64,000 bases of DNA, from NCBI GenBank assembly GCA_963714275.1, contig CAVQNT010000002.1, forward strand, positions 352,001 through 416,000. The letters are read 5' to 3'. A program made the translations under genes and the position numbers. The notes beneath the pieces are model-generated. The model saw nothing but the letters and a program-made list of their open reading frames with translations. It was not told where the DNA came from and did no database searches. This document shows positions 540 through 39,723 of this stretch, piece after piece; the stretch's first letter is position 1, and every line of letters starts with the position of its first letter. Origin of the DNA: Candidatus Bathyarchaeota archaeon (lineage in GTDB: Archaea > Thermoproteota > Bathyarchaeia > Bathyarchaeales > DTEX01).

Positions 540-624
540 CTGTGTCTTGCGTGTGTGTTTTTTATTTGTTTGTTTTTTTGTTGAGAGAGAGTTAGTGGGT
601 TTGAGCTCGGGATTAAATTTTTAT
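540..624 (-). repeat. Dispersed palindromic site copy (degenerate CCCAAACCC arm plus CA-rich tail)
   Basis: Reverse complement reads ATAAAAATTTAATCCCGAGCTCAAACCC...ACAAACAAA...ACACACAC, resembling 5411-5520. Confidence 0.6.
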
Positions 625-726
625 GAAAATGTAAAACTAGCTCTATAATCTGCATACATAGCGCGCACGCTGCCACAACACAAGCATGTGTGTTCCTTTA
701 TATTCGACGAAGCAGCTGGAAGGCTG

Positions 727-2011
727 TCATATTGCTGTTGGATCTACAACCTTTCCCATGAATAATATTGTTCCTGAACGGTCATCCCTGATTACAAAAA
801 AGAATGGTCTGTCTACAATAAAAGTTGGTTTAATAGTGGGAATTGAAGTTAAACCTATTCCTACATTTGTAGCAGCTGCTGCCACAGTTCCCTTTTCATT
901 AACCTCAATGACAGCCTTATGATCCACATAGTCTATAAAAAGGTCAGCAGGAGCAATGCCTCTAAAATTGGCATTAAACGGATCAAAAGCAATTCCCATC
1001 CCAAGCTTGTCTAAAACATCATTCAAACGCTTTACCCCATATTCTAACTTGAACTTGGGAAACTTTGCCTCAAGGCCTTCTACAAGTTTAAATCCGTCCA
1101 TATAATTCTCCCATGATTCTTTGCTTAATGATTCAATGAAAGAATCAAAAGTGACATCCCTATTCGGCAAGAACACGTACATCGCGATCTTGTCTCTACC
1201 ATAAGGAAATCTTGCAGCCTTGAAGTCTTCCCCTTCATAATAACTAAAGTTTCCCGTTGTTGACATCATGTCCACTTTTGCTGTGCTTCCATCAGATAGG
1301 AAGAAATCAGCTTCCTTGGTTGCTGACTCATTAAAACTTGTTACCCATTCTCCCTTGAAATAAATCGCGTTAATCAAAAACATAATTAGTTCAGGATCGA
1401 TTTCATCCACCATTTTATCTATTTTCCCATTAGTTTTGTTGCTTATCCAAGCATTTATCTCGTCAGGAGTTTGAGGGTTCCCAAAATCACGAGATAAGAC
1501 CTCGCTTTCAAAGTATTCTTTGACCCTTTGTGTGAAGTCCTGCTTAACCAAAGGTTCAAAACTTATTCATTATCCAAATAGAATCGGCAATATCCAATTG
1601 TACTTGCTTATCCACATTTTCTAGACTATCTATTAAGTTCAAGTACCCTTCGTTTAACTCTTCCAAACTCATGTTTCCAAGTTGAAGAGCTCTTGCCATG
1701 GCATCTTTTGTTGTGCCTTCTGCCCCGTTATACGTCATTGACAATGCGATCGAGATACTTAAGGGTGAAATGAAGACATTCATGTTTTTGTCTTCAATAG
1801 ACAGCTCTTTGAAGATGTTGAAAGCAAACTCTGTATTCGAGGAAACAAGACTTTTATCAACCAAATTTGCCTTTTCATCGGATAAGGCATAAACATCATT
1901 GATTTGACTTTGTGGGCTCAAATATTCATTAACAATAGATCCGACAAAAAATACTACTAAAATGATAAGCGTAACTAATGCAACTTTTCTTTTCTTTAAT
2001 TGTTCTATCAC
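727..2011 (-). CDS. Serpin with N-terminal membrane anchor/signal; frameshift near 1555
   Basis: NVFISPLSI, INAIYFKGEW, hinge NEKGTVAAAAT, DRPFFFVIRD...ILFMGKV across two ORFs. Confidence 0.92.
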
Positions 2012-2108
2012 ATAAAGCCCCTTAACTATACTTCTTAAAAATGTTTATTAATCTATACATTAGAACACCACAACATTACCAAAAATAAACATCAGCTAAG
2101 CTAGCTAA

Positions 2109-2642
2109 CACTATTTTAAACAAGTTTTCAGCTTGATTTCTGGAAATCTGAGACATGAATCCCGCAAGAAGTTTAAAGCTTATGATGGAAAAAACAACGC
2201 TTTCAACTTGGCACATGAAGTCTTGTCATGGAAAGTTTACAGAGCCTTAATCAAGGCTAAGCTCGAACCGTATCTAGGCTTCTTGCATTCGGTTCAATTC
2301 GGAAAACCTAGTCTCGTATGCGATTTCCAAGAATTATACAGATACCTCATAGATGATTTTTTGATTGAACGGAGAACAAGGTTTCACAAAAACGACTTCG
2401 TAGTTGTAACGGACTTTATAATGCATCTTAGAATTGGAAAGAAAATTCATTTATGCGATTATGAAACTAACGAGTTAGCCTGATGGTTTAAACGCACTTT
2501 TCGAAAGAACCGTTGAAATTCCGAGGATAAAGGTAGGCAACAGACAACCCTTGAAACCCTGATTAACGAAGAAGCCTTGTTATTCGCCAAGTATCTGAGA
2601 AATGAACGTGAAACTTGGATTCCTAGAGTGCCTTCACTCTAA
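2109..2642 (+). pseudogene. cas1: Solo Cas1 (casposase-like) C-terminal half; 5'-truncated and frameshifted
   Basis: NNAFNLAHEVL...KAKLEPYLGFLH...PSLVCDFQELYR is the Cas1 catalytic region; tail ETLINEEALLFAKYLRNERETWIPRVPSL*; starts abruptly after TCAGCTAAGCTAGCTAA. Confidence 0.85.
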
Positions 2643-2656
2643 TTTTTGTTAAAATT

Positions 2657-3763
2657 ATGATTAAATTTTTTGAAAGATTATATATATTATTAGTCAGAAT
2701 TAATGATTGGGAATTTATGATGAGTGAAAAGAAAGTTGTAAATAGAAACGTAGCCATTGCGTTAGGAATCATTTGTATCGTTTTAGCAGTCGGTTTAGTC
2801 GTAGATATAGCCAATATGCTAAAAGACAACATCATAGCAAGCAAGGATTCTACAATCAATGACCTAAATTCACAAATCACTAACAAAAACTCTCAAATAG
2901 CAGAGAAAGACAACACTATTTCTTCGTTAAACTCTCAAGTATCGAGTAAAGATTCTCAAATACAGACACTTACAAGCCAAATCATAGACCTACAGAATCA
3001 AATTACCTCACTTCAAAACGAAATTACCTCAAAACAAAACGAAATCTCTTCATTGAATACTCAGATTGCAGATCTTCAAGAATCTTTAGAAAACCTTCAG
3101 GCTAGAATATTAGAACTTGAAAGGATACTATTTACACAAGTAACCATAGACAAATTAGAGTGGAACGTTACAGGAAACAAAGTAACTGTGACCATTCGAA
3201 ACACTGGCAATCTTACAGCAACGATACAGTCGATCAGTCTAAGGGCAAATGTGGCGGGAGACCCTTTCGCAACAGAAAATATTGTTCCTCAGATAACAAT
3301 CGAAGCTGGGAAGACAGATGACGTAGTTTGGGCTCATAATTTGGGCTGGACAATTCACGATAGCACTTCCTACGTTGTTCGAGTAACACTTTCAACAGGC
3401 TTCAATTATGAGATAATCGCTTCTACACCCGAACCACAGATACAGGTAAGGATAGATTATGTACAATGGATTGTATCTCAGAATACAACTAAGATAACCG
3501 TAAGGAATACAGGAAGCCTCACTGCAACGATAGAATCAGTTGCAATAAGAAATAATCCAGGAGGAACATGGTATGTAACCACTATCCCCGCCGAAGCATC
3601 TGTTTCACCTACGTTGCCAACAACAATCGATGTCTGGTCCACAATAGATATTACTGTAATCTGGAAGAACCTGAAGCTGCAATCTAACAAATCATATGTT
3701 ATCAGAGTAACCACCGCAACAGGCTTCAACTTCGAGCTGACTTTTCAGTCGCCATCAGGTTAG
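2657..3763 (+). CDS. Membrane-anchored surface protein: TM + coiled coil + two Ig-like (CARDB-like) repeats; true start probably ~2717
   Basis: Hydrophobic N-terminus, heptad S/Q/N-rich stalk, duplicated RNTG.LTATI...SYV.RVT..TGFN.E domain. Confidence 0.8.
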   Translation: MIKFFERLYILLVRINDWEFMMSEKKVVNRNVAIALGIICIVLAVGLVVDIANMLKDNIIASKDSTINDLNSQITNKNSQIAEKDNTISSLNSQVSSKDSQIQTLTSQIIDLQNQITSLQNEITSKQNEISSLNTQIADLQESLENLQARILELERILFTQVTIDKLEWNVTGNKVTVTIRNTGNLTATIQSISLRANVAGDPFATENIVPQITIEAGKTDDVVWAHNLGWTIHDSTSYVVRVTLSTGFNYEIIASTPEPQIQVRIDYVQWIVSQNTTKITVRNTGSLTATIESVAIRNNPGGTWYVTTIPAEASVSPTLPTTIDVWSTIDITVIWKNLKLQSNKSYVIRVTTATGFNFELTFQSPSG

Positions 3764-3805
3764 CATGGATAGCTCAGCTAGAGAATCGAGCGTTTTAGGC
3801 TAGCT

Positions 3806-3962
3806 AGTTTTTTGTGTGATATATTATACTCTCTCTCATGTGTGTGAGTATATTTTTTCGTATTGTGAGGAGAGAGAGGTAGAGGAAGTAAGAGTAAGAT
3901 AGACAGAGAACATTAATAGTAGTTATAGAAGAAGAAGAAGAAAAGATTAAAATTTAATTCCT
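3806..3962 (+). repeat. Dispersed palindromic site copy (GT/GA-rich arm + GATTAAAATTTAAT)
   Basis: TTTTGTGTG...GTGTGAGTA...GAGAGAG...AAAGATTAAAATTTAATTCC, similar to 37281-37375. Confidence 0.65.
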
Positions 3963-4062
3963 TCCTTCCTGAATTATGAACTGTTAATTCGACGAATATC
4001 TAAAAAACAATTTAGAAATTTGAAATAAAAGATGGATTTAAGATATTGTTATTTGATTCTGA

Positions 4063-4320
4063 ATGCTTAAAAATAGGTACAAAAATACAAAACACAATAT
4101 GAGTCCTTTTCGTCTAATTGTGTTAGGAATACTTTTTATCATGTGGACTGCTTTTTCATTCGGCATTTCTACAATTATGACTGATGCAAGATTTTCTGCA
4201 TGGTGGCAAATTGTAATTGCATTATGTTTCTTGTGGCTTTCCTATGTTGCCATCGGACGTCTTATTCAGGAAGCTAGTTACACTGTTAAGCCAATCTGTG
4301 ACTTGTATTTTTGCCTATAG
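4063..4320 (+). CDS. Small two-TM hypothetical protein
   Basis: Two hydrophobic segments in 85 aa. Confidence 0.5.
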   Translation: MLKNRYKNTKHNMSPFRLIVLGILFIMWTAFSFGISTIMTDARFSAWWQIVIALCFLWLSYVAIGRLIQEASYTVKPICDLYFCL

Positions 4321-4835
4321 TACCAGTTAGCTAGATATTCCGTTCTTCTGTTTACTTATAGCTGAAGAACACGAGAGAGAAATAAAGAACCTATCTAGCT
4401 AATATGTTTCGAGCTGTTTTAAGTAGAGTTACAAGTTCCTCTTCTGACAGATCATTTTTGTCGTTTGCTTTGTTAAGCTTTGCTCATAGCTGAGCTAAGT
4501 CCAAATGGTATCTAGCTTGTTTTTCTAGCTTTTCAGTCATTTTAATCTTTTTTTTAATATTTTTTGATTAGTAAAAGTGTTGTGAAACAAAATTACATGT
4601 TATAACTAAATAGCAGACATATTATTTGACAATGCTCAGCTAGTTGTCAAGATAGCTAGGAAGCTTACTTTCTCAACTTACAATTTTACTTCGGCAAGAC
4701 TTCCTAAAATAAGCCTTTGTCTTCGTCTTTTTGGTACGACTCTTTGATTCTCACCACTTCTTTCACGGACGTGGAATCCAAACTCTGAGTTCATAAGACT
4801 AAAATGTATATGGAATATAGATTTTTCGTATAATA

Positions 4836-5395: not shown

Positions 5396-5520
5396 AGAGA
5401 GAGAAAGAGAAAGATTAAATTTTAATCCCAAACCCAAACCCATACTTAATTACACCCCTATACTCCAATACTCATACTTACCAATACAAGGCTAAACAAA
5501 CAAACACAAACACACACAAA
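5396..5520 (+). repeat. Dispersed palindromic site, complete form with both arms
   Basis: GAGAAAGAGAAA-GATTAAATTTTAATC-CCAAACCCAAACCC...CAAACAAACACAAACACACAC, bounded by AGCT tracts. Confidence 0.75.
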
Positions 5521-5643
5521 AGCTCAGCTAGCTTATGGAGTTTTCGAGCGTGCTTTATTATCAATATTATCCAAGAACATCAATAATACTACAGAAAAAA
5601 TTATATATTCATTCATGTTAATAGATTTTTTTGTGAACGGGGT

Positions 5644-6331
5644 TTGAATTTGAATATCTATCCAATTGACTTTGGCTTTAATCAATGCTACATAATCCAG
5701 AGTGAAGGTACTATCATGATCGATGGTGGCTCCCCAAACAAGGCAGAAGCCTTTAAGCAAGCAATAGAAAAGATTCAGATGAACCCTCAAGATATCAAAT
5801 TAATGGTCTTGACTCATGGGCATTTTGACCACATAGGTTCTGCTAAGGAAATAAAGGAGATAACAGGCGCCAAGATCGCTATGCACCTATCGGACATAGA
5901 CTACATTGACAAATCCAAATGGACACATATGCTTCCAAAAGGAGTCGGTATCTGGGGTAGCATAAACAGCGCGTTAACGCACGTTGCCATACCTTTTATA
6001 AATTTCCCACCGTTCGAAGTCGACATAGTCATTAGAGATGAAGGGATGCCATTGACAGGTTTTGGAATCCCAGGTAAAGTGGTCTACACTCCTGGTCACA
6101 CTGCTGGATCTATCAGTGTCATATTGGACTCAGGAGACGCTTTTATAGGATGCTTAGCCCAGAACAAGACTACCATTGCGACTGAGTCCCGGACTGCCTG
6201 TTTTGGCTGACAACATCGAAAAAGTAAAGGAAAGTTGGAGATCAATATTGGATCTGGGAGTAAAAACGGTATATCCAGGACACGGAAAGCCCTTTTCCGC
6301 TGACATAATCCGAAAGGCTTTGGCTAGCTAG
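5644..6331 (+). CDS. MBL-fold metallo-hydrolase; frameshift near 6165
   Basis: THGHFDHIG, TPGHTAGS, C-terminal VYPGHGKPF in another frame. Confidence 0.88.
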
Positions 6332-6388
6332 CTTAGAGTGCGCGTAAGACGCAAGAGGTTTTACTAATATGAAGACTTTTATCAATCC

Positions 6389-7917: not shown

Positions 7918-8052
7918 CTGAAATCACTAATCCGCATGATATCCTTCGGTTCTGCTATAACTTTTTCTCAAAATCAAAAACTGTCATTAAATGACTTAAT
8001 TACTATGTTACACATATTTAGAATCTAGAAAGCCTTTAAGGAGTTGATAAGT

Positions 8053-8496
8053 ATGGTCAGACTAAGAGATATAATGGTTTCTCCGGTTATAACAACTAAA
8101 AAGAACGCAAAGATAAGTGAAGCGGCAAGCACAATGTGCGCAAATAACTTAGGCTCACTAGTTGTTGTTGATAATAATGAAAAGCCAGTAGGCATGGTTA
8201 CAGAGCGGGATATGCTACGAAAGGTCATCATGACATCGAAAAACCCAAAACAAACCGATGTTTCCCAAATTATGTCAAGTCCTTTAGTAACAGGCGATCC
8301 AGACATGGACGTGGAGCATGCCGCCAAGTTCATGCTACAGAAAGACATCAAGAGGTTGCCGATTGTTGAAGAAGGAAAAATGATTGGTATAGTGACTTTC
8401 ACGGATATAATGAAGGCTCAACCTCAAATTATGATTGCCCTTGAAAGGAGTCTCGAAAAGTTGCCTAAACGGTTCAGGAAGTGGATGAGAAAATAG
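8053..8496 (+). CDS. CBS-domain pair protein
   Basis: LVVVD...VGMVTERD and LPIVEEGKMIGIVTFTDI. Confidence 0.92.
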   Translation: MVRLRDIMVSPVITTKKNAKISEAASTMCANNLGSLVVVDNNEKPVGMVTERDMLRKVIMTSKNPKQTDVSQIMSSPLVTGDPDMDVEHAAKFMLQKDIKRLPIVEEGKMIGIVTFTDIMKAQPQIMIALERSLEKLPKRFRKWMRK

Positions 8497-8578: not shown

Positions 8579-8851
8579 TTACCTGAAATCTTCTGAATCT
8601 ACTACCGTCATTGGATATGGTCCTTCAAATGGGGCTGGAACTTTTTTGAGAACTTGTCGGATTGCCTCAGCATTTGTGGCATTCCATTGGCACAGTATTT
8701 TGACGATTTTGCCCTCTTGATTCAGTTGGGCCCAACTGTTGACCCAGTAGGCATCAAGTGTTGAATTGGCTTTTGCTGCTTTACCTACAGGAGCAGCTTC
8801 TGCTATGGTTGCAGGAGCTGGTAGTGGGTGAACAACTAAAAATTTCGGCAT
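8579..8851 (-). CDS. DUF4242-like small protein
   Basis: MPKFLVVH...W..SW...KILCQWNATNAEAIR pattern. Confidence 0.65.
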   Translation of the reverse strand: MPKFLVVHPLPAPATIAEAAPVGKAAKANSTLDAYWVNSWAQLNQEGKIVKILCQWNATNAEAIRQVLKKVPAPFEGPYPMTVVDSEDFR

Positions 8852-9820
8852 ATTTTTTTTCTCCAAAAACATATTTTTTAAGTTACATCTATATAAGTAC
8901 TTTTACTTTGTTTGATGTTTCTCTTGTACTAAAAAGTTCCTCATATATATGTAAGATAGCAAACCGTAGTAAGTCTGTGAAGCTTGAAGACAAGGGAAAT
9001 CTTGATAGCCAACAGTGATGGACACTACTATGCCATTAACAGTTAGACAAAATCACAGACTGGATATATCTTTCTAAGATAGTGTACTTTGCTGAGGTTT
9101 TCAACATAATCCTCAAACCCGACAAGAGAAAAGAAACAAGGAATGTTAGGTTTTCTAATATTCGCTATGCTGAACTTTGATTGTACCACATAATAGTAAA
9201 GTTGTACCTTGATAGCTAGTTTTCTGGCTTAGACTTAGCACGACCCTTAATCTTCATTGCTAACTCACTATCAAGTTATAAAAAAAATCGGAAAGAGTAA
9301 AAGTGCCTAATTACCAACAATATAGTAGAGAGATTATGTCCCCCAAAAAAGGACTCTAATAATGATGAAGGTTGTAACCAGAAAAATTTTTGTGAACACC
9401 CCCTGTATTTGGCGAGAAAAATACAGAAAGCAAGAAAAGGAAGCCTTAAATGATGTATCTTTCTAAAAAATAGTGAGTGAACAAGCTATGAGGGGAGATG
9501 GAATATGAGACTTTTGGTATGACAATAGGTTTCTTGGTATCCTGCTCTGGTGTTTATTGTTTTTATTTGGCTTAGTCATTATTGCTATTGGATTTGACGT
9601 TTACAATGGCATAATCATCATAGGGGTTGTTCTCATTATCGCATTCAAACTTTTTGAAAAATACATTAAAAGATGGAGAGAGTAAAAAAAATATAATTTT
9701 CGTTCTTATTCTCAATAGAGAAATCAGAGCATAGTTTGTATATTTCTAAGTCTCTAGCCTGCTAAGTGTTTCATGTGAATTCCTACACAAGCAATAAAAC
9801 TAAAACAGAACAACTGTTGC

Positions 9821-18655: not shown

Positions 18656-18899
18656 AATACTCCTTGCATAATATACTGAGAAATCTCTTCAATAAAGATT
18701 TCTGAAGGAGAAAATAGTTATAGCACTTATATTGCCCTTTCAACCTGCGCTAATTAAGCAGATGAATCTCCGGCTCTAAAGATGATGGCATCAGTTCCAA
18801 CTTCGTTGCAAGGTAGAAATCCATTATCATGAGCCGGATATGAGAGGTTTCGGAATCTAACTTCTCAACAATGCTAGCTCAGCTATTCTCTTCATATCC

Positions 18900-18998
18900 A
18901 TATGCTAAAGTAAGGGAGAGGAACTACATTGATCGTTATATGTAGTATAGATAGGGATAGGCAAGTATTGGGTTTGGGTTGGGCGCTTAATTTTAAGG
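18900..18998 (-). repeat. Dispersed palindromic site copy (CCCAACCCAAACCC arm)
   Basis: Reverse complement CCTTAAAATTAAGCGCCCAACCCAAACCCAATACTT vs CCCAAACCCATACTT at ~5433-5447. Confidence 0.6.
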
Positions 18999-27796: not shown

Positions 27797-28007
27797 CCAT
27801 CATAGAACATTGTCCAAACATGAGTCTAAAGAAAAGCAGTATCTAAGAAAGCAAATAGGTATGAGCTCACCAGAAGAAGAATACGTTTATGAAACGAACC
27901 AACAGTGAAACTCATGACGGCTGCCACTGAGGTAAAAGATGGTGTTGCTCACGATAAAGAGTTATATCATGGACGAACATAGTTAGACGACATTTTGGTG
28001 TTGAATT

Positions 28008-29311
28008 ATGTCTTCTCAGAGAATCACCATACCCTATCAGGATCAGATGCTTGAGGCGGATGTTGCCAGCCGAAACCTTTTGGCAATAATCGAGGAGAGG
28101 CCAGACCTTCCGCCCGTTGACTGACTTGGAGGCTGAGGCTAAACATGCCCTTTCTAGCCCAATCGGGTTGGAACGAATATCAAAATATGTGGGAGCCAAC
28201 TCCACAGTTGCCATCCTTGTTGACGATTACACGAGGCCGACGCCTGCTCACAGGATAGCGCCACTAGTGGTAGAGGAGCTTGAGGCTGCGGGCGTTAAAG
28301 AGAGGAACATCTTCTTCCTCTACGCGCCTGGTCAACATCCCGCAACTCGGGAGCTTGCTGTAGAAAAGGTTGGAAAAACGCTTGCAGACCGTTTTGAGAT
28401 CATTGTCCACAACCCCAAGGCCTTCGAGGATCTTTTCTTCCTCGGCTTCACCTCTACTGGGACGCCGGTCTGGGTGAATAAGGCGATTAAACGCGCTGAC
28501 TTCATTACCAACATCGGGGGCATCAAGCCCAACTTTTCGCCTGGCTGGGGAGGAGGCTGCAAGATTATTATGCCGGGTATTTCGGGTTGGGAGACCATCA
28601 ATTATACTCATACGAAGGTTATGGCAGGAGACAGGGTGAATTCAGAAGGCGTCGATGATACCCCAGTTAGGCGCGACATTGAGGAAATCGGCGACATGGC
28701 TGGGCTCAAGTTCATCCTTAACGTGGTCTGGAACAGAAGTGGTCAAATCTGTGGTGTTGTGGCTGGAGATCCCCATCAAGCTTGGTATAAGGGCTTAGAA
28801 ATCGCCAAGAAGAGTCTTTGTTTATAAACTTCCAAAACGAGCCGAGATTGCAATCATAGGCGCTGGAAAGGCAGAGTACATTTCCGAAGCCCTTTATGCA
28901 GCCACAAAAGGCTACAGCTTAACAAAGGAAAATGGTACGATTATCGTAGTGGCGCCTTGCACACGCGGTTGGAATAAGGAAGTTTCTCCCATAGAAAAAG
29001 ACTGGTATAAATCGTTCCCTTCGGAAGACTTAATGCGTTATACAGCCAGCGAGATCGCTTGGAAGACTCAGAAGCGAGAGCTCGACCCCGCCAGAAACAT
29101 GAACGGCCCTTACGGTCTCAGGTTAACAATAGAAAAGAGGCATGTTCTTATCGTTTCTCACGCAGCAGCTCCTGAAAAGCTGAAAACATACGGCGTTGAC
29201 CATGCCTTCAACCTTACTAAGGCCTTAATAAAGGCTTATGCTAAGCAAGGTTCAGAAGCATGTGTTATTATTATGCCCCAGGATTTCAGATATGTTCTCA
29301 AAGTTGACTAA
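28008..29311 (+). CDS. LarA-family nickel-pincer racemase/epimerase; frameshifts near 28110 and 28820
   Basis: ILVDDYTRPTP, GTPVWVNK, GGGCKIIMPGISG. Confidence 0.82.
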
Positions 29312-29411
29312 CATGTGTACAGCTATCATGCAAGGTGCTAGCTCAGCTTCTGTTCTTTTTTTAGGAAAGGATATATTTTTGGCTAATATCATAATTCTGG
29401 AAGTGTTGGAT

Positions 29412-29561
29412 ATGGTAAAGGCGCTTATTCTGTATCATTCGCAAGAATTTGGTAACACTGCTGTTATGGCGGAGGCGCTTGCTGAAGGATTAAGGACTGC
29501 CGGCTGTGAAGTCGATTTATTTAACACAAATGATAAGCGCTTCAAGCTGACTAACTGTTAG
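29412..29561 (+). pseudogene. Flavodoxin 5' fragment
   Basis: MVKALILYHSQEFGNTAVMAEALAEGL; cut at AGCTGACTAACTGTTAGCTAGCTAA. Confidence 0.75.
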
Positions 29562-29737
29562 CTAGCTAAGAGTATTCCTTCTGGAAGCTCCCTAGTTCTT
29601 CACCTCTTCTTTTACTCTAAAAAAATATGGTTGTTTTTAAAAATGACGAACAATGACAGATTTAGGGAACACCTGCAAATACAGAAGTGGAAGAATAAAT
29701 GTCTAGTCAAAGGACAAAAAGGTGCGTGTAAAAAAAT

Positions 29738-30667
29738 TTGGAAAACATCAAAAGGAAAGAGATTAAAGATGTTGTTCCTGCTATTTTTCTAATTGGTAGT
29801 CTATTTGTCATTATCGACACTTTAGCTTTGTTGACTGTTGAACCATATGAAGCCTCTGGTGTTGCGGTGTTTAGTAATCCAAATGACCCAGTGGATATTG
29901 TATATTTATTTTTGACATTACTGGGGTTTACATTTGCGTTTTTGTTGATCGCTAGATTTTGGAAAAAACAGTTGATACGTGGAATTGTCTTAATGTCAAT
30001 TGGGCTAACAGTTTTCAGTACGGCCTTTACTTTGTTGGCAACTTTGTTTCCAGAAGAGTGGTCACTGTTTCTTTCAATAACGACCGTAGTACTTCTAGTT
30101 CTAATACTCATCAAGTATCCTGAATGGTATGTGGTAGACACATGCTGCATAATTGTGGGAGCTAGTGCCATCGCAATGCTTGGTATCTCATTGAGCATTT
30201 TCCTCGTGATTGTTTTGCTTATTGGATTAGCGATATATGACGCAATATCAGTCTACATAACTAAACACATGATTGACCTTGCAGACGCTCTCTTGGATCT
30301 TAGGTTACCAATAATATTCACTATACCGATAACTAGAAACTATTCGCTGATTAAAGAAACGAAGAGTCTTAAAGTAAAACTCAAGGACAATGAGAAACGG
30401 GATGCGTTTTTTATAGGGTTAGGAGACATTATAATGCCTGGTACTCTGGTCGCTTCCACTTTTCACAATATTACTAGTAACGGTCTCCCTGTAGCCTTAT
30501 CAGTAATGCTGGGAACAATTTTGGGCCTCATAGTTCTCATGAGAACAGCCATTAAAGGAAAGCCGCAAGCAGGACTGCCTTTTCTTTGCGGTGGAGCAAT
30601 ATTAGGCTATTTGTTATCGAGCTATATGTTATTCGGAACATTCACTGGTCTTTTTCTGACTAGCTAG
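29738..30667 (+). CDS. Presenilin-family intramembrane aspartyl protease (PSH, A22)
   Basis: IYDAISV, IGLGD and PQAGLP motifs; multi-TM. Confidence 0.92.
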   Translation: MENIKRKEIKDVVPAIFLIGSLFVIIDTLALLTVEPYEASGVAVFSNPNDPVDIVYLFLTLLGFTFAFLLIARFWKKQLIRGIVLMSIGLTVFSTAFTLLATLFPEEWSLFLSITTVVLLVLILIKYPEWYVVDTCCIIVGASAIAMLGISLSIFLVIVLLIGLAIYDAISVYITKHMIDLADALLDLRLPIIFTIPITRNYSLIKETKSLKVKLKDNEKRDAFFIGLGDIIMPGTLVASTFHNITSNGLPVALSVMLGTILGLIVLMRTAIKGKPQAGLPFLCGGAILGYLLSSYMLFGTFTGLFLTS

Positions 30668-31052
30668 TAAACGCACTAATCAATAACTTCAAAATGTTAG
30701 GTCGTTTTTGTAGATGAGCAGCGCGCGCTAACTAAGGAGAAAGAAGCCTCAGTTTAATTCATGACAGTGGTTAATTACTAGACTCTGAGAAATTTGTCGC
30801 TGGTTCTAAGTTGGCTTAATTTCTTTTTTCTTTCCAAACCAGTAGATTATCACAGCTATTACCAAAAAAATTATTGTACTTACTGGTGCGAAGGTATTTT
30901 CCCCTGGGGCAGGAAATAACATTGATATACCTAGAAAGATAGTAACAATGATTCCAACCCAATAATACCATTTCAAACAGTTATCCTCGGCGTTACCATA
31001 TTTATCTTAATATTACCTCATCGACTGTACTGGGTCCTAATGTTTCGATAGT

Positions 31053-31859
31053 CTACTGTAACCGACGGCAGAGGTCGTCCCTAATGAATGCTGAACCGCG
31101 ATATCGTAGTGTTTGAGTTACCTGACGCACAGGTAAAGTATTCAAAACCTCTAACAGCTTAACAAGCTGCTTAGGAAGGTCCGCTTTACCCGGATCACCA
31201 AAGAAGATCTCTCCTGATTCGCCTCGCCACAACTCATCAATTGTAGTATCGCTGGGGAAGATGACTGGATAGTTGGCGTCGGGAGGACCATCAAGAGAAG
31301 GGATATATTTATAGAAAAGTAAAGGTCGGTTGTTAATCATTTTACTTGCAGCGAAGCGGACAATAGCGTTCTGTTTCTTTAGCGGACCGAGATCCATGCT
31401 AATTAACAGTTGATCCCATAATGAGGCTTTACACAGTAAATGTCCGTTAGGCTGAGCTTCAGCTGTTGGAATGTCAGCATACATCTTTGGCCAGCCTACC
31501 TGTTCCCGACCTCTAATGATTGGAATAGCATCGTTCAAGAACATCACTAGAACATTCTCGCCCTCAACATGGTCCTTTTCACCATCAAAACGTGCAGCCA
31601 CTTGCACAGCAACTTCATTATACCCGCGATCTGCCATGAAGTCGACATGATTATAGTAGGCAAACTAAACGGTTACGACGGGCTTCTCAGCTAGTTGGAA
31701 ACAGTCGGGTATAAGAGGCTGGAGGGCATCAGAATCGGTTTGGTACTGAAGAAGAAGCCATTCAGCCTCGCCTAAATGGGGACGATGGTCCTCTCTTTTC
31801 TCAGCAATCGGCCCACCAATCAATGGCATCAAATAAATTTTGCTTGGATCAATCTTCAT
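31053..31859 (-). CDS. Acetoacetate decarboxylase family protein; frameshift near 31665
   Basis: GYNEVAV, IRGREQVGWPKMYADI. Confidence 0.85.
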
Positions 31860-31960
31860 GTTCTACTTCCCCTAATTTCGAATTGTATTACTACAACTAT
31901 GTAAGCCTATTCATGAAGTCCTCATATAAGCTCAGGTAGCTACCAAAAACACAGTGTGAA

Positions 31961-32194
31961 TCATTGTTGTCTTTGTCCGCATTCAAGGCAAAAACGTACA
32001 GAAGTTGGTACCTTGCTTTTGCAACTCGGACATATTTTTAACACAAGTTCAGGATGTAACAAGGTTCCGCAAAAATTGCAGTAGTTGGAAATTGAGTAGA
32101 CCTGCAACCTACATTTTGGGCAGATCAAGCAATGCGTATATAGAGGAAGGGGGATCAGAATCAATGCTCCAAGAACCAATTCATCCACACCCAT
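31961..32194 (-). CDS. Double zinc-ribbon protein with TM segment
   Basis: CPKC..CNFCG..CPSC..CLECG. Confidence 0.7.
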   Translation of the reverse strand: MGVDELVLGALILIPLPLYTHCLICPKCRLQVYSISNYCNFCGTLLHPELVLKICPSCKSKVPTSVRFCLECGQRQQ

Positions 32195-32497
32195 GGAGAT
32201 ATATCCGTTCTACTTGTTCTTTTTATTTCTTCATCATTCTAGTTAAGTTAAGTAACTGATAACTATTAGTAATAGATAGCATCGTTTTACGTGTTCTTCG
32301 CAATAACTTTGTCCGCAGATTTCTTGGAGAGAATTGTAAAGACTGCCAATTTATGTTGTTCTTCTCACTTGAGTGGTTCTACAACTGGCTACCATAACTG
32401 GATGTTGGCAAACTGCATCGGAGATAGAAAATTCGCATTTACTTTTTTTAGCTAGGCTGACTTATTTTCTCAGATCAATGTCTATAATTGAAGCCAA

Positions 32498-33776
32498 TTG
32501 ATAAACTTAGCCATCATAGGCGCTGGTGTTGGAGGATGCTCGGCGGCTTATTTTGCCAGCAAATATCTCCCAGATTCAAAGATAACTATCTACGAAGCTA
32601 GTGATAGGGTAGGCGGAAGAGTGCTAACCCTCGAGGAAGGACCTCTGAAGTCTGGAGATGGGAGCCGAATTCTTCAACCCCACGAATAAGACAATCTTAG
32701 GACTCGTTAAGGATAGGGGCTTAAGGGTGAGGAAAATCGAGGAAAGCATGGACTTCGCAATATGGAATGGTTCCGAGATCATCTTCAAGTCAAACCAAGT
32801 GGCTACTCTTACGATGCTAAAACTCTTCATGAGATACAAACTGAACATGTCCAAAATGTTCTTCATCCTCAAAGAGGCAAGACGCCTGGTTAAGTACTTA
32901 TACGAAGGAAACTGGGAGAATCCAAGCGCTGTTGATGAACTCTTCGAGTCTATAGGCCTAGACAAATGGTACAGGAAGCAATTCAATAGTATCCTCAATG
33001 AACGAGGCGTGGACGAAGCATTCATAGACGACGTTGTAACGCCTATCACGAGGATAATCTACTCTCAGAATGCAGACCTAGGAGGATTCGCAGGGCTTAC
33101 ATCAATAATAGGTGTTTACGTTGGACCGTTATACAACCTAGCTGACGGTAACAGCGTTCTTCCAAGGAGTCTCGCAGAGGCATCAAATTCAGAGCTTAGG
33201 CTGGGGCAGAAGGTAGAAAACATCGAAAAAACACCCGACAGTTCTTACAGGGTTTCAGTTGGAGAGAAGACTTCCATTTTTGATGGTGTGATTATTGCGG
33301 TTCCGCTGGAGTTAGCTGGATTTGAGTTCGACGGTGTCTCAATGCGTAAGTGGAAGCCACAGCAGTACAAAAGAGTCTACACGAGGGTTATGCGTGGCTT
33401 CGTTGACTCAGGTTACTTTGGTCTTGAAGAATCAAGAAAATTGCCTCCCATGATACTAACCACTGCGGAGGCAAATCAAATAATTCGCTTCACCATAAAG
33501 CAATCGGCTAATAGCGAGTCCTTGCTGACAATTTCCTCAACTGAGCCGCTCTCCGATGATGTGCTCTACGGGGTTCTCAAGAATGGGAAGACAGTTCTAG
33601 AACACAGTTGGGAAGCAGCATACCCTGCCTTCAAGCCGATGGATAAACTTCCGCCTTCTCGCCTCGATGAAAGGCTCATGTACCTCAACTCCATCGAATC
33701 CGCAGCCTCATCCATGGAGACATCGGCCTTTTCGGCCCTCAATGCCATAAAAATGATGAAACGCGAATTTAGATAA
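32498..33776 (+). CDS. FAD-dependent oxidoreductase, prenylcysteine oxidase/lyase-like; frameshift near 32650
   Basis: GAGVGG...E...VGGR; HSWEAAYP; YLNSIESAASSMETSA. Confidence 0.8.
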
Positions 33777-33902
33777 TCTGATTCATCGAAAGTTCACATT
33801 TGTTCTTAGTTAGCCAGACTGAAGCTCAGCTCACTCGATTGATGAGTTAGTACCACACATTATAGATGTAGTAGTAGTAATTAAGAAAAAAGGAGTGGTG
33901 GT

Positions 33903-34438
33903 TTATTTCCATTTGACGGTGCAGCCGACGGGTTCTGTATTTTGTACCGGGACTTCCTGTCCTTTAAGTATGGCGTCTAAGGCGTCTCTCAAATAATGTC
34001 AGCTGTACATTGTTTGGTTCGTAAACGTTGTCGTCGATTCTGCCGTGATAACGAAGCGTCCGTTTCTTGTCAAAGACGAAGACTTCAGGTGTTCGTTCAG
34101 CTCCGTATGATCTGGCTATGCTTTGGCTTTCGTCTCTTAGATAGGGAAAATTGAAGCCTTTTTCTTTCAGCTCGAACTTTCATGTTCTTGAAACTGTCTT
34201 CAGGATAATTCTTGTCATCGTTGGAGTTAATTGCAACGAGTGCAACTCCTTTGTCTTTGTAGTCTCTCTGCAACTCAACAAACCTTTCCTCGTATGCCTG
34301 AACAGTTGGGCAATGGTTGCAGCTGAACATGACTATGATGATTTTCTTTTCCTTGAAATCTTCCAAGCTGTACGTGTTGCTGTCAACCCCAGGCAACTTG
34401 AAGCCGGGTGCAAGATCTCCAATTTTCAGATCTGCCAT
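33903..34438 (-). CDS. Thioredoxin-fold redoxin (AhpC/TSA-like); frameshifted
   Basis: FSCNHCPTV, AINSND; C-terminal EPVGCTVKWK*. Confidence 0.85.
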
Positions 34439-34545
34439 AATTCATTCTCCACTAAAGAAAAACAGGAAACAGTTAATTAACTTTTTTCTCAATAGTTGAA
34501 GCGAAGGGTTAATTAGGCTTCGTGATGTGCAAGAAGTGACTTTAA

Positions 34546-34973
34546 ATGGAAACCGAAAGTGATGACTATAGACGGATTCGAGCCTCAGTTGAGAAATCGG
34601 TAACAAAATATGCTGAAAGAAGCCTTTTTTTCTGAATCCTGACGACATAGTCGTCAAGAACGTCATTTCAGGACTAGCTAGAAACAAACTGAAATATGGG
34701 TACAACTATTGTCCATGCCGAGAAGTGAAAGGAATCCTAAAAGAGGACGCAAAAAACATCTGCCCATGCCAAACACATAAAGAAGAAATCATACGTCACG
34801 GAACCTGCGAATGCGGACTCTTCGTCAATAAAGTCTTACTTCGAAGCAAAAAAGATTCTCTTTCAAGTTTAGGCAGATTGTTCCCTTCATTAATTGAGGA
34901 TGCAAAAACTCTTCCCTTAGCGAGGTTGTGCCCAACAAATAACTGGTTCTATTGCTTTCTCTTCCTTCAATAG
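34546..34973 (+). CDS. Ferredoxin:thioredoxin reductase catalytic subunit-like; frameshift near 34625
   Basis: YGYNYCPCR...ICPC...GTCECGLFV. Confidence 0.8.
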
Positions 34974-35338
34974 TAGTGCAGCGAAGAATGGTGTTCATTA
35001 ATAAGTCTGTTTCATCTTGCTTTTATAAAACAGGGTTTAAATTTGGCTTATCTCACGTATACAGAAGGCTACATAAGGTGTTAGAAGTATAAGGAAGGCT
35101 GGTTGAAGCATGCCTGTAAATGAAACTGTTATGTTTCTAGCTCAGCTAATTCTTTTTGGATTTCTTCCATATGTTTTTCCATTAATTTTATTTAAGCAGT
35201 CTGGCTCAACTCTTTTGCCCAATATAAACTAGCTAGTCATATACATGTATTTTTGGAGAAAGAGTGTGTTTTTATGTAAAAGTTAGATGAGGGAAAGAAG
35301 AAAAAGTTTATAATCTCATCTCGAAATCCACACAAGTA

Positions 35339-36051
35339 CTAATAACGTTTTGCATTCTTTCTTCCGTAAGGGCAGACATAGACGCAAAGACCGCAGATGC
35401 CTTCTCCCATGGTTTGGGCTCTTTTATCCGTATAATCCTTGCATAAATGAGCTCTAAACCTTAAATCTCTAGGTTCTGAAGGGTCGAAGGGTCTACCGGT
35501 GAACGCTTTTACGGGGCATATTTCAACGCATTCTAGGCAGTTCCCACAACGATTATCCATAGGTCTTCCAGTTCCCAATGGTGCGTCTGTCAACACTGTT
35601 GCCCATCTTACCCTAGGTCCATATTCAGGAGTAATCAGTAGACAGACTTTTACCTATCCAGCCTAGACCAGCAAGGTGAGCTGCAGTTTATGAGAGAATG
35701 CTCCCATCAACCTATTCTGGTTAACCGTTTGAGAAGCTGGGATTTGATAGTCTCTAAAATTGGATTCCTGTATCTTCTTTGCTACTGCAAGAGATGCCCT
35801 GTCAAGGCTGCTATTCACAGAGTTGTACAACCCTCGATACGTGTATATTGCTGATGGCTCTTCATGGCGATAAAGTTCATCCACCACTGCGTCCAACAGT
35901 CTAATACCTATTGAGACAGCCTTAGGAAACGCTACAATATGTTCTCCACCTTGCGCCAAAACGAAATTGCGAGCTTGAATAATGTCTGCTGCCCAAAAAA
36001 GTCTGCTCCCAAAGCCTTAGCAGTGTTTTCTAAATCATTCCGCAGATTCAT
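35339..36051 (-). CDS. Epoxyqueuosine-reductase-like 4Fe-4S protein; frameshifted
   Basis: FSHK, TPEYGPRVRW, CGNCLECVEICP, CGLCVYVCPYG. Confidence 0.82.
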
Positions 36052-36336
36052 AAAACCATCCTGAACTCTCCCGCTGCATCTGGAAGATAAGCTTATCGCC
36101 CACAGCTACTACTGGAAGAAGCCAAAGCTTGTTTTTCCAGTAAACATGATTCTTTTAAGGCGTTTGCAGGGCGAGTGGTTGACCGATAACCTTGAGGAGA
36201 CTTCTGGGTATTCTTCCACCTTTCTATGCAGAGCAAGACCGACTTTAAATGTTAATTACAAATTCTATGTAACCTTTTTCAAGATCTATTGGAAGAACAT
36301 TCTCGTCAAGCATGCCCCAGGCTCTAGCTGTTTGCT

Positions 36337-37164
36337 TCAACTTTTAAGGAAAGCCAAGATGTCTGTTTGAAACTGGCGTTTGTTGTCGTCAAAGGCGTTG
36401 TGTCCAAATCCTTTATAGAGGATCAACTTGGCATTCGGGATCCCCTCAGCTGATTCACGATTCAGATAGAACTTGTCTTCTTCTCCTCCGATGACAAGAG
36501 TGGGCACCTTGATCTCAATCAGTTGCTCCGAAGTGAAGTCATGATTTACCTCCGCCTCGGCTTCTACCAACCCATCCGAGGGGTCGCCAGAGGCGCCAAA
36601 CATGCTCTTTCCAAAGAGCCACATTAACAACTTAAAAACGTACTTTTTTAGTCCCTTGGGATATATCGAGGTAACCATAAAGACAGCTGCCTTTCTCCAT
36701 TTACCCTGACGCGCCAAGTCACCTACGTGCCTTGTCCATTCCTTACCTTCTTCACTCAGGCGATAACCAGTCTCGGCAAGGACTAAGTGGCGAATCAAGT
36801 CGGGATGATCAACAGCAAAGTGATGGGCAATCGGTCCCCCTGACGAAAGTCCTATTATGTCAACCGGCCATGCTAACTCTTCCTTTATCATGGCTGCGTA
36901 GTCGTCGGACATGTCCCGTGTAGAGTACCCAGCAGGTAAACCTCCCCTTCGGCTTACATAATATACCGTGTATTCTTTCGCAAGTTCCTTGAAGCTACCT
37001 GAAACCATTCGAAGTTGGAAGCCAGATGGAGGTTTATGTTCAAAGTCAGGCCCTCCCCCAAAGATGACTACAACTCGTTGCCCGCTTCCCATACGGAAGA
37101 ATGGAAGTCCATTCTTGGAATATCCTGTTGCTGCTTCCGGCTTTGTGCCATGTTCTTTAGTCAT
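36337..37164 (-). CDS. Alpha/beta hydrolase
   Basis: GLSSGG nucleophile elbow, PTLVIGGEED, GFGH. Confidence 0.9.
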   Translation of the reverse strand: MTKEHGTKPEAATGYSKNGLPFFRMGSGQRVVVIFGGGPDFEHKPPSGFQLRMVSGSFKELAKEYTVYYVSRRGGLPAGYSTRDMSDDYAAMIKEELAWPVDIIGLSSGGPIAHHFAVDHPDLIRHLVLAETGYRLSEEGKEWTRHVGDLARQGKWRKAAVFMVTSIYPKGLKKYVFKLLMWLFGKSMFGASGDPSDGLVEAEAEVNHDFTSEQLIEIKVPTLVIGGEEDKFYLNRESAEGIPNAKLILYKGFGHNAFDDNKRQFQTDILAFLKS

Positions 37165-37280
37165 GAATCCACCCACTAATTGCATTATCAACAATCGAGA
37201 AGGTTATCCAAAACATATTTAGACAAAGATACATTTATCTTTTTAAATGTTTAGTCAAGTTTTTATTTTTAGTAATTGTC

Positions 37281-37389
37281 TAGTTTGTGTGTATTTTGTT
37301 TTTCGTGTGAGTAGAGTAGAGAGTATACTGAACAGAAGAGAACGGAACGCGAGAGAGAAAGATTAAATTTTAACCCCAACCCAAACCCC
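37281..37389 (+). repeat. Dispersed palindromic site copy with both arms
   Basis: GAGAGAGAAA-GATTAAATTTTAACC-CCAACCCAAACCCC. Confidence 0.75.
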
Positions 37390-37393
37390 TCGT

Positions 37394-38266
37394 CTAAATA
37401 GGCCGCCACTGCCACACTTCTCCCTTCTGGATGACATGGCCTAGGCCAGGGAAGGGGAAGTGAAAGGCAAGCACTAGAGCCTTCTCCGCCGCGGCTCTGC
37501 TGAGAAGTCGGCGCCTAGTGTTGGCGACTTGTTCGGGTGCAAAGTCGACGGCCGCGCACCAATCTGGCGACTCCAGGTGGATGGGATGGAGCCAAGCGTC
37601 GGAGATGCACAGCAGTTGCTCACCCCCTGAGGAGATGGCCAGCGCCATGTGACCAAGTGTGTGGCCGGGCGCCGCAACGGCTCGGATGCCTGGCACGATC
37701 TCCGTTTCACGGTCAACGAGGTCAAGTCGATCCTGAATCGGCGGAAGGTTTTTGCGTGCGAACGCTATCTGACGCTTTCTGACATGCTCATCGAGCTTCT
37801 GTTCCGCCTGTTCTGAGGTCCAGAAATCCCACTCATCCTTCCACATAATGAAACGGGCCTTAGGGAAAGCCGGCTTGCCCTCGCTGTTGAGGTTCCCGCC
37901 GATGTGGTCTGGATGTCCGTGTGTGAGGATGACCCTGTCGATGTCCTCGGGCGCGACTCCTTCGGCCTTTAGGTTGGGGATGAGTTTACCTGTGGTCTGT
38001 GCAAGGCCATCTGCTCCCGTGTCTACCAGCACCCGATGCCTACCAGTGTTGATCAATAGGCAGATATACGGACTTATCCACTCCACCCACTTTTCTGGCT
38101 GGAGGTTGTGTTCGCGAAGCTTTTGCACTAGACGTTCTTTTGGCGCGTTGACGAAAAGAAGGATTGCAGGCGGTGGGAACATGGGCGGTGTGTACGTCAT
38201 TGTGCCATCGCTGACGGCCATACATTCGAAGGTCCCTACCTTGAACCGATAACTCTCAGAGCTCAT
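37394..38266 (-). CDS. MBL-fold metallo-hydrolase (YtnP/AHL-lactonase-like)
   Basis: THGHPDHIGG, APGHTLGH, AFHFPFPG; visibly more GC-rich than its flanks. Confidence 0.92.
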   Translation of the reverse strand: MSSESYRFKVGTFECMAVSDGTMTYTPPMFPPPAILLFVNAPKERLVQKLREHNLQPEKWVEWISPYICLLINTGRHRVLVDTGADGLAQTTGKLIPNLKAEGVAPEDIDRVILTHGHPDHIGGNLNSEGKPAFPKARFIMWKDEWDFWTSEQAEQKLDEHVRKRQIAFARKNLPPIQDRLDLVDRETEIVPGIRAVAAPGHTLGHMALAISSGGEQLLCISDAWLHPIHLESPDWCAAVDFAPEQVANTRRRLLSRAAAEKALVLAFHFPFPGLGHVIQKGEVWQWRPI

Positions 38267-38470
38267 AGTTTTCCCCTCGCTTCCAGATTCATCGTTACTA
38301 TAGTATAAAGAGTTCAGAACTTTTAATGTTATTGATGTCGAAAAAACAAAGAAAGATTTTCGTGAAGGTCGATTTGGTGAGAACGCTAGGATTGTTTGAA
38401 ATTCAAATCTAGCACGCGCAAGTTTGTTGTCTGATATACATGATACTTGTATAGTTTAGTACACAAGTAC

Positions 38471-38577
38471 GTTAGTTAGTCAGTTAGTCAAAGAGTTAGT
38501 TAGTATAGTCAGTCGTTCCGTCCCGTCAAAAAAGTGTGTGTGGGGGTTAAATTTTAACCCCAAACCCAAACCCAAAC
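38471..38577 (+). repeat. TTAG/TCAG tract followed by palindromic site copy
   Basis: GTTAGTTAGTCAGTTAGTCA...; perfect GGGGTTAAA-T-TTTAACCCC (38543-38561) followed by AAACCCAAACCCAAAC. Confidence 0.78.
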
Positions 38578-38578
38578 A

Positions 38579-39115
38579 CTAGATGTCAGTATTTATAGCA
38601 AACGCAATCTCACGTAGTTTGCTTAGCGCATCCTTGAGGAGTTTTCTATCTACGGTGGGAATAGGTTTGATACTATCTCCAGAATTTGAGAAGTCACAAT
38701 AGAATACTGCCATCCTTGCTTCCCAATCCGCAACACTTTTTACGTCAAAAAATTCTGGGTCGAACACAGTCTCATCAAATGCACCTTCATGAAGTGTTGT
38801 ACACTCGCTAGGAAGAGTCTTAATTGCAATCTCGAATTTTTTTGTGTGGTTTCGGAATTCTTTCTTATATTTAACTTGGACTTTTCCCTTTGAGGGGGTG
38901 TACTGTTTCAATAATAGAATTTTCCCGTACTCTTCTACTGCGTAAGTATAAAGCCCTGTGCATATCGCTTCGTTACCTCCATTATCCAAGAGTTTTTCTG
39001 CGGATTCCAACAATTCTAACACTCCCTGAAGCGTCTCTTGAATGCACTTCTTCCAAACTTCTTCTGTAATCTCTAGAATCTCAACCCAATCTCCTTTATC
39101 ATCCTTTAACATCAT
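38579..39115 (-). CDS. AbiV-family (HEPN) abortive-infection protein
   Basis: LLESAEKLL...YAVEEYGK...FRNHTKK pattern. Confidence 0.7.
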   Translation of the reverse strand: MMLKDDKGDWVEILEITEEVWKKCIQETLQGVLELLESAEKLLDNGGNEAICTGLYTYAVEEYGKILLLKQYTPSKGKVQVKYKKEFRNHTKKFEIAIKTLPSECTTLHEGAFDETVFDPEFFDVKSVADWEARMAVFYCDFSNSGDSIKPIPTVDRKLLKDALSKLREIAFAINTDI

Positions 39116-39288
39116 AGACCCAGCCCTTTATTCATATCATAGATTTCGCTATTCTAAGTTGCCACTCTTTAGTTTCATTTCTTAAATATCTGGCAAATAG
39201 TAACGCTTCCTCATCTATCAAAGATTCTATGGTCTGCTTTTAGCGCGCGCGCTAACTTTACTGCGTACGTATCCGTTTACGTTAATTC

Positions 39289-39723
39289 TCAGTTAGTTTC
39301 TCTCACGGGAGGGGTATATGTAATAATAAGTAATAGTAAGAGAGAAGAAAGAAAGAGAGGGGGAAGGTTGTAAGAATGAGAGAAATAGGGTAGTCGTAGG
39401 TATGCTGAGAGAAAAAGATTAAAATTTAATAGGGTTAGTACCTGATATTTTAATTTAATCTTTGGGTGATAGTGAACCAGTGGCACCATTTTGTTCAGTG
39501 AGCTAATCATTTTGTTCACAGTTCTTCTAACGACTGGGATTACTATGAGACTCGTTGGGAACCCAACTATAAACCCTATTAGAAACCCTCCTGAAAATCT
39601 CAAAGGAAATCCAGAGTCGAATCCAGTCATCAAAATGGTCATCGTAAGAGTCATCGTAAAATCCATTGCCAGTGTCATGAACAACGCGAACAATACTGTT
39701 GAGTATTTCTCATTAATCTTCAT
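39289..39723 (-). CDS. DUF2798-like two-TM protein; ORF reads through the repeat site
   Basis: FALFMTLAM...GF...FPTSLIVIPVVRR; recognisable domain ends near 39495. Confidence 0.65.
   Translation of the reverse strand: MKINEKYSTVLFALFMTLAMDFTMTLTMTILMTGFDSGFPLRFSGGFLIGFIVGFPTSLIVIPVVRRTVNKMISSLNKMVPLVHYHPKIKLKYQVLTLLNFNLFLSAYLRLPYFSHSYNLPPLFLSSLLLLLIITYTPPVRETN
39300..39462 (+). repeat. Dispersed palindromic site copy (purine arm + GATTAAAATTTAAT)
   Basis: Long GA-rich tract, then GAGAGAAAAAGATTAAAATTTAATAGGG...TTTAATCTTT. Confidence 0.65.

Follow-up and report, generated by a model that had tools for sequence, protein, structure and literature searches.

A 64-kb stretch of the genome of a member of the Bathyarchaeia (C2:352001-416000, i.e., part of contig C2 of genome G000, which comprises 2.64 Mb in 10 contigs; hereafter the window) carries a family of dispersed sites, each consisting of a short AT-rich palindrome with low-complexity arms on its flanks. 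With a probability of about three in four, these sites can be regarded as junctions left by small, casposon-like transposons of the Bathyarchaeia that encode Cas1 and are devoid of a family B DNA polymerase (PolB). Four observations carry this reading: complete elements in which terminal inverted repeats (TIRs), flanking direct repeats and a Cas1 gene form a single architecture; Cas1 remnants linked to the sites; homology between window arms and the TIRs; and breakpoints at the edge of the palindrome. The original prediction, made from the window sequence, had supposed that the sites are junctions of mobile DNA and had named Cas1 as a candidate binder. This stands, Cas1 being the linked enzyme, whereas the mechanism now favored is a duplicated target and not the crossover core that had been envisaged.

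The site is built around an odd palindrome of 11 nt, TTAAA-W-TTTAA. All seven places of the window singled out in the original prediction hold it, five as exact and two as degenerate cores (Table 1), and on both strands the window contains 17 cores with at most one mismatch as against 6.4 +/- 2.8 in 100 shuffles, none of which reached 17. Across the 2.64-Mb genome there are 68 exact cores, compared with ~4.9 expected from a rough base-composition estimate, and 67/68 lie outside predicted genes. On both sides of the core lie arms of low complexity, ~12 to 182 nt long and poor in G when read outward, and the strand-biased tracts described at the outset are borne out by 125 G-free or C-free runs of at least 50 nt where 5.6 would be expected. 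Comparison of the 600 nt on either side of the 68 exact sites resolves the arms into repeated modules of ~100 nt and reveals two pairs of sites, 5–6 kb apart, that enclose inverted repeats, one of these segments being the Cas1-encoding C4 99116-105161; the spacing of neighboring sites is irregular, ranging from 202 to 7898 bp. The two arm types initially distinguished, L (CT-type) and R (CCCAAA-type), are indeed the commonest among the 136 arms at these sites (CCCAAA 39, CT 35), but more types exist (CA 22, TTCC 4, other 36), and arms of different types combine freely, as had been proposed, in many combinations. The CCCAAA repeat and the core go together: 31 of 106 loose matches to the repeat, including nearly all those with two full units, directly follow a core.

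The complete elements give these arms their context. When the Cas1 of the element on contig C4 was used as a query, 15 loci with 51–73% identity were obtained from other Bathyarchaeia assemblies, the named relatives being Bathyarchaeia, consistent with the assignment of the genome. Inverted repeats surround Cas1 in 11 of these 15 foreign loci, with 101–146 nt at 96–100% identity in eight; none were found at L005, L006, L012 and L018, three of which are cut by a contig end. Altogether there are 11 complete TIR-bounded Cas1 elements of 3.9–6.7 kb, three in G000 itself and eight in other Bathyarchaeia assemblies, and their TIRs are ~75–146 nt long, mostly 96–100% identical and G-poor. In six of the eight foreign elements (L007, L009, L010, L013, L016 and L017) the TIR starts directly after the palindrome, and in the remaining two, L011 and L015, it is immediately preceded by direct repeats of 13–15 bp that are not palindromic. 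CT-type TIRs are the rule, while TIRs of the CCCAAA type are seen in the C7 element and in an element of the same-genus genome G001, wherein Cas1 is followed by a CCCAAA-type TIR and then by the palindrome. Hence both the L and the R arm are, by likeness of sequence, TIR types of Cas1 elements. A profile made from the eight foreign TIRs only gave 11 weak matches in the genome (E up to 10), of which 10 begin at a site and face outwards.

The linkage of Cas1 to the sites extends to its decayed copies. The genome has seven Pfam Cas1 matches, and a protein search for the element Cas1 yields 14, distributed over 13 loci and mostly representing C-terminal remnants. A site lies at most 2.5 kb downstream of 10 of the 13 Cas1 genes or remnants, the window remnant with its neighboring site S2 among them, as against 6.8% of 20000 random points. 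In complete elements, Cas1 scores 126–157 bits with the Pfam model and lies above the cut-off of TIGR00287; it matches only the generic Cas1 model, none of the subtype models reaching their cut-offs, and in eight sequences the invariant catalytic residues E162, H227 and D239 occur in the usual order together with an acidic residue at 242. The core of genes shared across the elements comprises Cas1 (11/11) and two further open reading frames (ORFs), ORF-A (10/11) and ORF-B (9/11). Among the ORFs of eight elements (9 + 55 ORFs), none matches DNA_pol_B, and Cas1 is itself the largest at ~350 aa; the PolB genes of the genome lie outside the elements, the nearest being 6.3 kb from the C7 element. 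A search of the genome, which is 91% complete, found no Cas2, and no integrase or recombinase Pfam family, i.e., no tyrosine or serine recombinase, was detected among the ORFs of the eight elements or the 43 window ORFs of at least 150 aa.

ORF-A, which has an hhhDxE strand motif, may be a small AEP-like primase that substitutes for PolB in replication. A language-model search points to AEP-like primases, and a structural model of the protein (mean pLDDT, the predicted local distance difference test score, of 68) retrieves AEP primase or PrimPol chains, including a CRISPR-associated Prim-Pol, in 12 of the top 15 rows with Z scores of 5.1–6.5, which are below the safe level of the tool. Against Pfam, no family scored above threshold, one of eight members matching an AEP-like family at E 0.057; the ORF-A profile recovered nothing among solved structures, and Foldseek gave no match at E <=0.001.

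The relationship between the TIRs and the palindrome suggests what the latter is. Direct repeats of 13–15 bp flank the TIRs of complete elements, and these usually coincide with the palindrome. The central base of the palindrome is concordant in all pairs that can be read in both copies (8/8; the right-hand copy of L017 is mutated), and further asymmetries are identical in the two copies, namely a G on both sides in L009 and a C at the third position in the C2 element. The duplicated 15-mers all fit one loose consensus (G, A/G, T/C, T/A, AAA, N, TTT, ...C). Such a direct repeat outside the TIRs, with matching asymmetric bases, argues that the palindrome is a target-site duplication (TSD), probably arising from staggered cuts, and not a crossover core. 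The original prediction had expected the identity of the flanks to switch at the center of the palindrome; in fact, the homology of an arm between copies continues through the whole palindrome and ends exactly at its far edge.

The same edge appears in comparisons between strains, for which contigs of four metagenome runs were set against positions 26001–46000 of the window. One contig of 927 nt (X4) and one of 504 nt (X3) follow the window as far as 37374, where the palindrome at 37363 has its right edge, and continue with dissimilar sequence; at 38547, many contigs have nothing but the site itself in common with the window, and their flanks are dissimilar on either side of 38541–38579; and in runs X2 and X3 a joint starts at 39430. 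Breakpoints between strains thus map to the edge of the palindrome: that breakpoints between copies and strains would fall at the palindrome was correctly foreseen, their placement at its center was not. The family also marks the variable regions of Bathyarchaeia genomes. The hydrolase gene beside the site at 37363 (S5) was followed through 21 metagenome homologues, leaving out five that start inside the gene; none of the 13 with 350 nt of upstream sequence carries the arm or the palindrome, and their homology with the window breaks off ~75 nt upstream of the start. The arm at 37363 is thus a solo end, its neighboring gene having a conserved upstream region of its own. The genomes of the same genus share no DNA homology with the window at 34–42 kb other than short sites.

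Table 1. Sites of the window, the Cas1 elements of genome G000 and associated features.
Feature	Sequence	Position	Strand	Description
S1	window	520..624	-	degenerate core 613-623 (1 mismatch); G-poor CCCAAA-like arm leftwards, ~612 to 520
Cas1 remnant	window	2097..2630	+	residues 164-341 of 344, four in-frame stops; Pfam Cas1 65 bits
S2	window	3805..3977	.	CT-type arm 142 nt (3805-3946), exact core 3947-3957, short TTCC arm 3958-3977
S3	window	5396..5537	.	CT arm ~20 nt, exact core 5415-5425, CCCAAA-type arm 112 nt
S4	window	18880..18998	-	degenerate 10-nt core 18978-18987 (1 base short); CCCAAA-type arm leftwards
S5	window	37268..37392	.	solo CT-type TIR ~37268-37362, exact core 37363-37373, short CCCAAA arm 37374-37392
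S6	window	38460..38577	.	CA/GTCA-style left arm, 19-nt perfect palindrome around exact core 38547-38557, CCCAAA arm 38558-38577
S7	window	39307..39466	.	CT-type arm 112 nt (39307-39418), exact core 39419-39429, right arm 39430-39466
Cas1 element	C4	99116-105161		own complete element
Cas1 element	C7	143211-147627		own complete element, CCCAAA-type TIR
Cas1 element	C2	931103-937508		own complete element
ORF-A	L010	5318-5872		hhhDxE strand motif; homologues in other elements
ORF-A	L002	4617-5147		copy in the C4 element
Second palindromic motif	window	2094, 5247, 5384, 5521, 6323, 14878, 18873, 19023, 29337, 29560, 43926, 59501		AGCT-rich

Within the window itself, the clearest ties to the elements are at S2 and S5. 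The Cas1 remnant of the window is 67% identical to the Cas1 of the C4 element, and S2 is the next site, 1317 nt downstream, with the long CT-type arm facing the remnant. This arm is read as the right TIR of a decayed Cas1 element: over its first 18 nt it is identical to the beginning of the TIR in the C2 931103-937508 element, and it is 84% identical over 135 nt to the arm beside the site at C3 6433. For the long arm of S5, the counterpart is an intact Cas1 element of the same-genus genome G006, with whose right TIR it agrees at 32/35 and 29/37 positions. Other arms belong to families dispersed through the genome: 48–51 nt of the S1 arm are shared at 85–90% with arms elsewhere, e.g., at C7 138669-138719; the S3 arm family is common to C2 946295, C4 105161 (the outer flank of the C4 Cas1 element) and C5 168163; and the right arm of S7 has a second copy at C5 16142, while a search of the genome for a second copy of the S4 arm found none. 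With regard to genes, the S1 arm points to the ATG of a metallo-beta-lactamase-fold gene, the CCCAAA-type arm of S3 stops at an AGCT-rich motif immediately 5' of an ATG, and the short CCCAAA arms of S5 and S6 abut the stops of a minus-strand metallo-beta-lactamase gene and of an AbiV-like HEPN gene (Pfam AbiV), respectively.

The family might then have spread as follows. A Cas1 acting as the integrase would join both 3' ends of the element to a target with cuts staggered by ~15 bp, and repair would duplicate the target such that a full copy of the palindrome comes to lie outside each TIR. The preferred target would be a 15-mer of the form G-A/G-T-TAAA-W-TTTA-A-N-C, usually palindromic, and the duplicated palindrome beside an existing end would again be a good target, so that later insertions would tend to settle next to earlier ones. 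Serial insertion of this kind would place different types of arm on the two sides of one palindrome, and decay of the element interiors would leave solo arm-palindrome-arm junctions like those of the window. Most copies of the site are such solo or decayed ends, and the ends of Cas1 transposons explain what is a conspicuous class of low-complexity intergenic DNA in the Bathyarchaeia.

Several findings weigh against this account. Intact elements are bounded by only three of the ~86 sites in the genome, and when the 900-nt outer flanks of the 11 elements were compared with all collected loci and the genome, no contiguous left-plus-right flank, i.e., no empty site, was found. At adjacent sites the central base is the same in 25 cases and different in 17, which is no clear excess. 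Other than at S2 and S5, the window arms match known TIRs only over their first ~20 low-complexity nt, and the foreign-TIR profile matches no window arm; that the arms are mostly unmatched beyond ~20 nt is attributed to the fast divergence of TIRs. The core plus R-arm pattern is present in only 3/40 related genomes (it has no match in viral contigs), while relatives of the element Cas1 are present in 18/40. The single-gene units between S5, S6 and S7 have dissimilar arms at their two ends and are not simple TIR-bounded transposons. Finally, C6 469854/475238 (L001) delimits a 5.4-kb segment that is an inverted duplication without Cas1. An inverted repeat of 195 bp, into which fall the palindrome and 12 nt of the outward CCCAAA arm, forms its boundaries; the genes in it specify an SSB-like OB-fold protein and one like TFIIE-alpha, and the segment does not fit the transposon model.

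Among the other explanations, one would see the sites primarily as bidirectional archaeal promoters, in which the palindrome serves as a symmetric TATA box with a TFB-recognition element (BRE) on each side and the arms as unstructured, G-poor 5' leaders, the Cas1 elements merely targeting or carrying such sites. The BRE is the element that sets the direction of a promoter. To the eye, the end of a CT arm together with the palindrome (AAAGA-TTAAAT...) resembles an A-rich element plus a TTAAA/TTTAA box found 25–45 nt upstream of ~12/29 tRNA genes, as do the non-palindromic TSDs of L011 and L015; a regular expression for this box matches upstream of 1943 genes 57 times in sense and 32 times in antisense orientation (1.8x); and at six of the seven window sites the long arm faces the 5' end of the next gene. 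However, genome-wide the typed arms face 54 gene starts as against 57 gene ends, with 15 far from genes (background for gaps of at least 150 nt, 1521 versus 1293), no clean motif emerged when a motif sampler was applied to the regions upstream of tRNA genes, the conserved upstream region of the hydrolase gene beside S5 is its own, the palindrome being present in none of the 13 homologues, and a site type whose CCCAAA form was found in only 3/40 related genomes gives no grounds for assuming a lineage-wide promoter. A simple promoter-plus-leader model was rejected as the main explanation given the random orientation of arms relative to genes and the separate upstream region of the S5 gene, and we consider the promoter account as a whole rather unlikely. 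It may nonetheless be that the elements choose promoter-like DNA as their target, or that promoters are rebuilt at their ends. Insertion sequences can create outward or hybrid promoters at their ends, and there is a parallel here in that the TIR end would supply an A/G-rich, BRE-like stretch beside a TATA-like duplicated target; the difference is that the candidate promoter is of archaeal type as opposed to the bacterial -35/-10 type, and the likeness is one of sequence alone.

A different role for Cas1, namely the capture of foreign gene-sized DNA at the palindrome to form cassette arrays, would account for the consecutive single-gene units separated by palindromes at 37363, 38547 and 39419, and also for C7:138586-147627, wherein five consecutive sites have the same central base, as serial duplication of one palindrome would give; the latter is a single case. 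Yet both ends of these units bear TIR-like arms, a feature not to be expected of captured DNA, and the absence of an overall excess of concordant neighbors speaks against it, making such capture decidedly unlikely. The original prediction itself favored att-like sites, at which a tyrosine or Xer-type recombinase would exchange arms by crossover at the center of the palindrome in the manner of attL, attR and attP. The mixed arm combinations and the breakpoints at the palindrome are what this would produce, but identity covers the whole palindrome and not half of it, the paired palindromes are direct repeats of 13–15 bp outside long TIRs with a concordant central base in all eight pairs, and no integrase family was found in the eight elements; this mechanism is accordingly given up as very improbable. 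It had also been suggested that the arms are telomere-like or capable of forming G-quadruplex-type structures, in keeping with the (GGGTTT)n on one strand, which reaches five units at C7 143211. Such a structural role is scarcely credible: the sites lie internally in unique surroundings, the CCCAAA repeat is found at no contig end, it is tied to the palindrome as noted above, and the copies in the window offer just three G-tracts, on a single strand.

The Cas1-transposon reading places these elements beside the casposons, which are described as being defined by Cas1 and PolB, with TIRs of 25–602 nt and TSDs of median 15 bp (PMC4046053). As reported in a further account, their integration in vitro yields 15-bp duplications at a target composed of the duplicated part and a leader-like part, and tandem copies occur with nothing but the TSD between them (PMC9939771); both sources present all casposons of families 1–4 as carrying a family B polymerase, hence the term self-synthesizing (PMC4046053, PMC9939771). 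Measured against what these accounts relate, the Bathyarchaeia elements are alike in having a Cas1 gene without an adjacent CRISPR array (short palindromic repeats that are clustered and regularly interspaced) or Cas2, TIRs, a TSD of ~15 bp and a recurrent specific target, and in that neighboring copies are separated only by the duplicated target. They differ in being much smaller and devoid of PolB, in having strongly G-poor, low-complexity TIRs, and in inserting into an intergenic, AT-rich, usually palindromic 15-mer and not into tRNA or protein genes at their 3' ends. Their copy number is high as well, a single genome having 13 Cas1 loci and ~86 sites, and solo ends are numerous. A further difference is that the best solved relative of their Cas1 is the CRISPR Cas1 4n06 (E 1.7e-20) rather than the Methanosarcina mazei casposase 6opm (E 3.7e-13), going by pairwise scores only. 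Our search of the literature brought up no account of Cas1 transposons without PolB in Bathyarchaeia. The casposons so far described are rare, large, low in copy number and all endowed with PolB; the Bathyarchaeia family is small, abundant and without PolB, and inserts into a palindrome that is duplicated and may then be reused.

There is a comparable likeness to integration at the CRISPR leader-repeat junction (PMC9939771), wherein, according to that source, a short, often palindromic sequence is duplicated at each Cas1 integration and then serves as the target again; in the Bathyarchaeia the adjacent arm could act as the leader. The inserts here are, in contrast, kilobase elements with TIRs and not spacers of 30–40 bp, and the irregular spacing and missing Cas2 reported above are likewise unlike a CRISPR array. 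One might go further and see in the palindrome a proto-CRISPR repeat, in that a Cas2-independent Cas1 integrates beside a leader-like arm, duplicating the 15-bp palindrome each time and so building arrays of kilobase units between repeat copies. We regard this as unlikely; if true, single genes would be among the units as cargo, the hydrolase, metallo-beta-lactamase and AbiV genes at 36.3–39.4 kb being examples, and the system would represent a living intermediate between the casposon TSD and the CRISPR array, or a Cas1-based counterpart of the integron. Leading models derive CRISPR repeats from casposon target duplications, and the Bathyarchaeia family thereby offers many natural insertion events for testing them, with a minimal set of enzyme, end and target small enough for biochemistry.

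Some further features of the elements and of the window may be recorded. Cargo of defense or toxin type occurs at or in elements: the AbiV-like HEPN gene (window 38579-39115) lies between two sites, and the L009 element encodes Fic/DOC and a ClpP-like SDH protease (8052-8456 and 8759-9796). Metallo-beta-lactamase-fold genes at window 17-676, 5644-6210 and 37394-38266 each adjoin a site, and the last of these is matched by metagenome contigs at much higher depth, with dissimilar flanks on both sides. Between 27825 and 34000 of the window, near-identical metagenome contigs are without single bases at many places. These differences suggest that split ORFs of the window may be indel errors of long-read assembly; the split serpin, P-type ATPase and other ORFs (including 727-1551/1556-2011 and 59988-61055/60979-62211) are possibly such errors rather than pseudogenes.

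Other repeats accompany the sites. A second palindromic motif in the window has the form AGCTAGCT or AGCT-N-AGCTAGC (Table 1), and GCTAGCTA is the commonest GC-containing intergenic 8-mer, with 214 occurrences. Genome-wide, the AGCT-rich motif forms 155 clusters, 149 of them intergenic, typically 90–110 nt from a gene boundary, favoring neither starts nor ends. Although enriched in the vicinity of the sites, it was rejected as a regular distal boundary of the arms, as it lies within 160 nt in only 17% of arms (controls 4%); it is a separate motif. For the flank shared by C10 14672, C2 301091 and C6 365244, a circular or cassette reading was likewise discarded: the flank is a mosaic with a permuted order of modules and without a second palindrome. 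In the same vein, C2:300661-302500 and C10:12765-14683 contain the same three repeated modules in circularly permuted order, the palindrome being internal in one and at the boundary in the other. Finally, one cargo ORF of an archaeal Cas1 element (L015:10221-10853) shows matches to two domains of eukaryote type, COMM (E 7e-5) and COMMD HN (E 4e-6).

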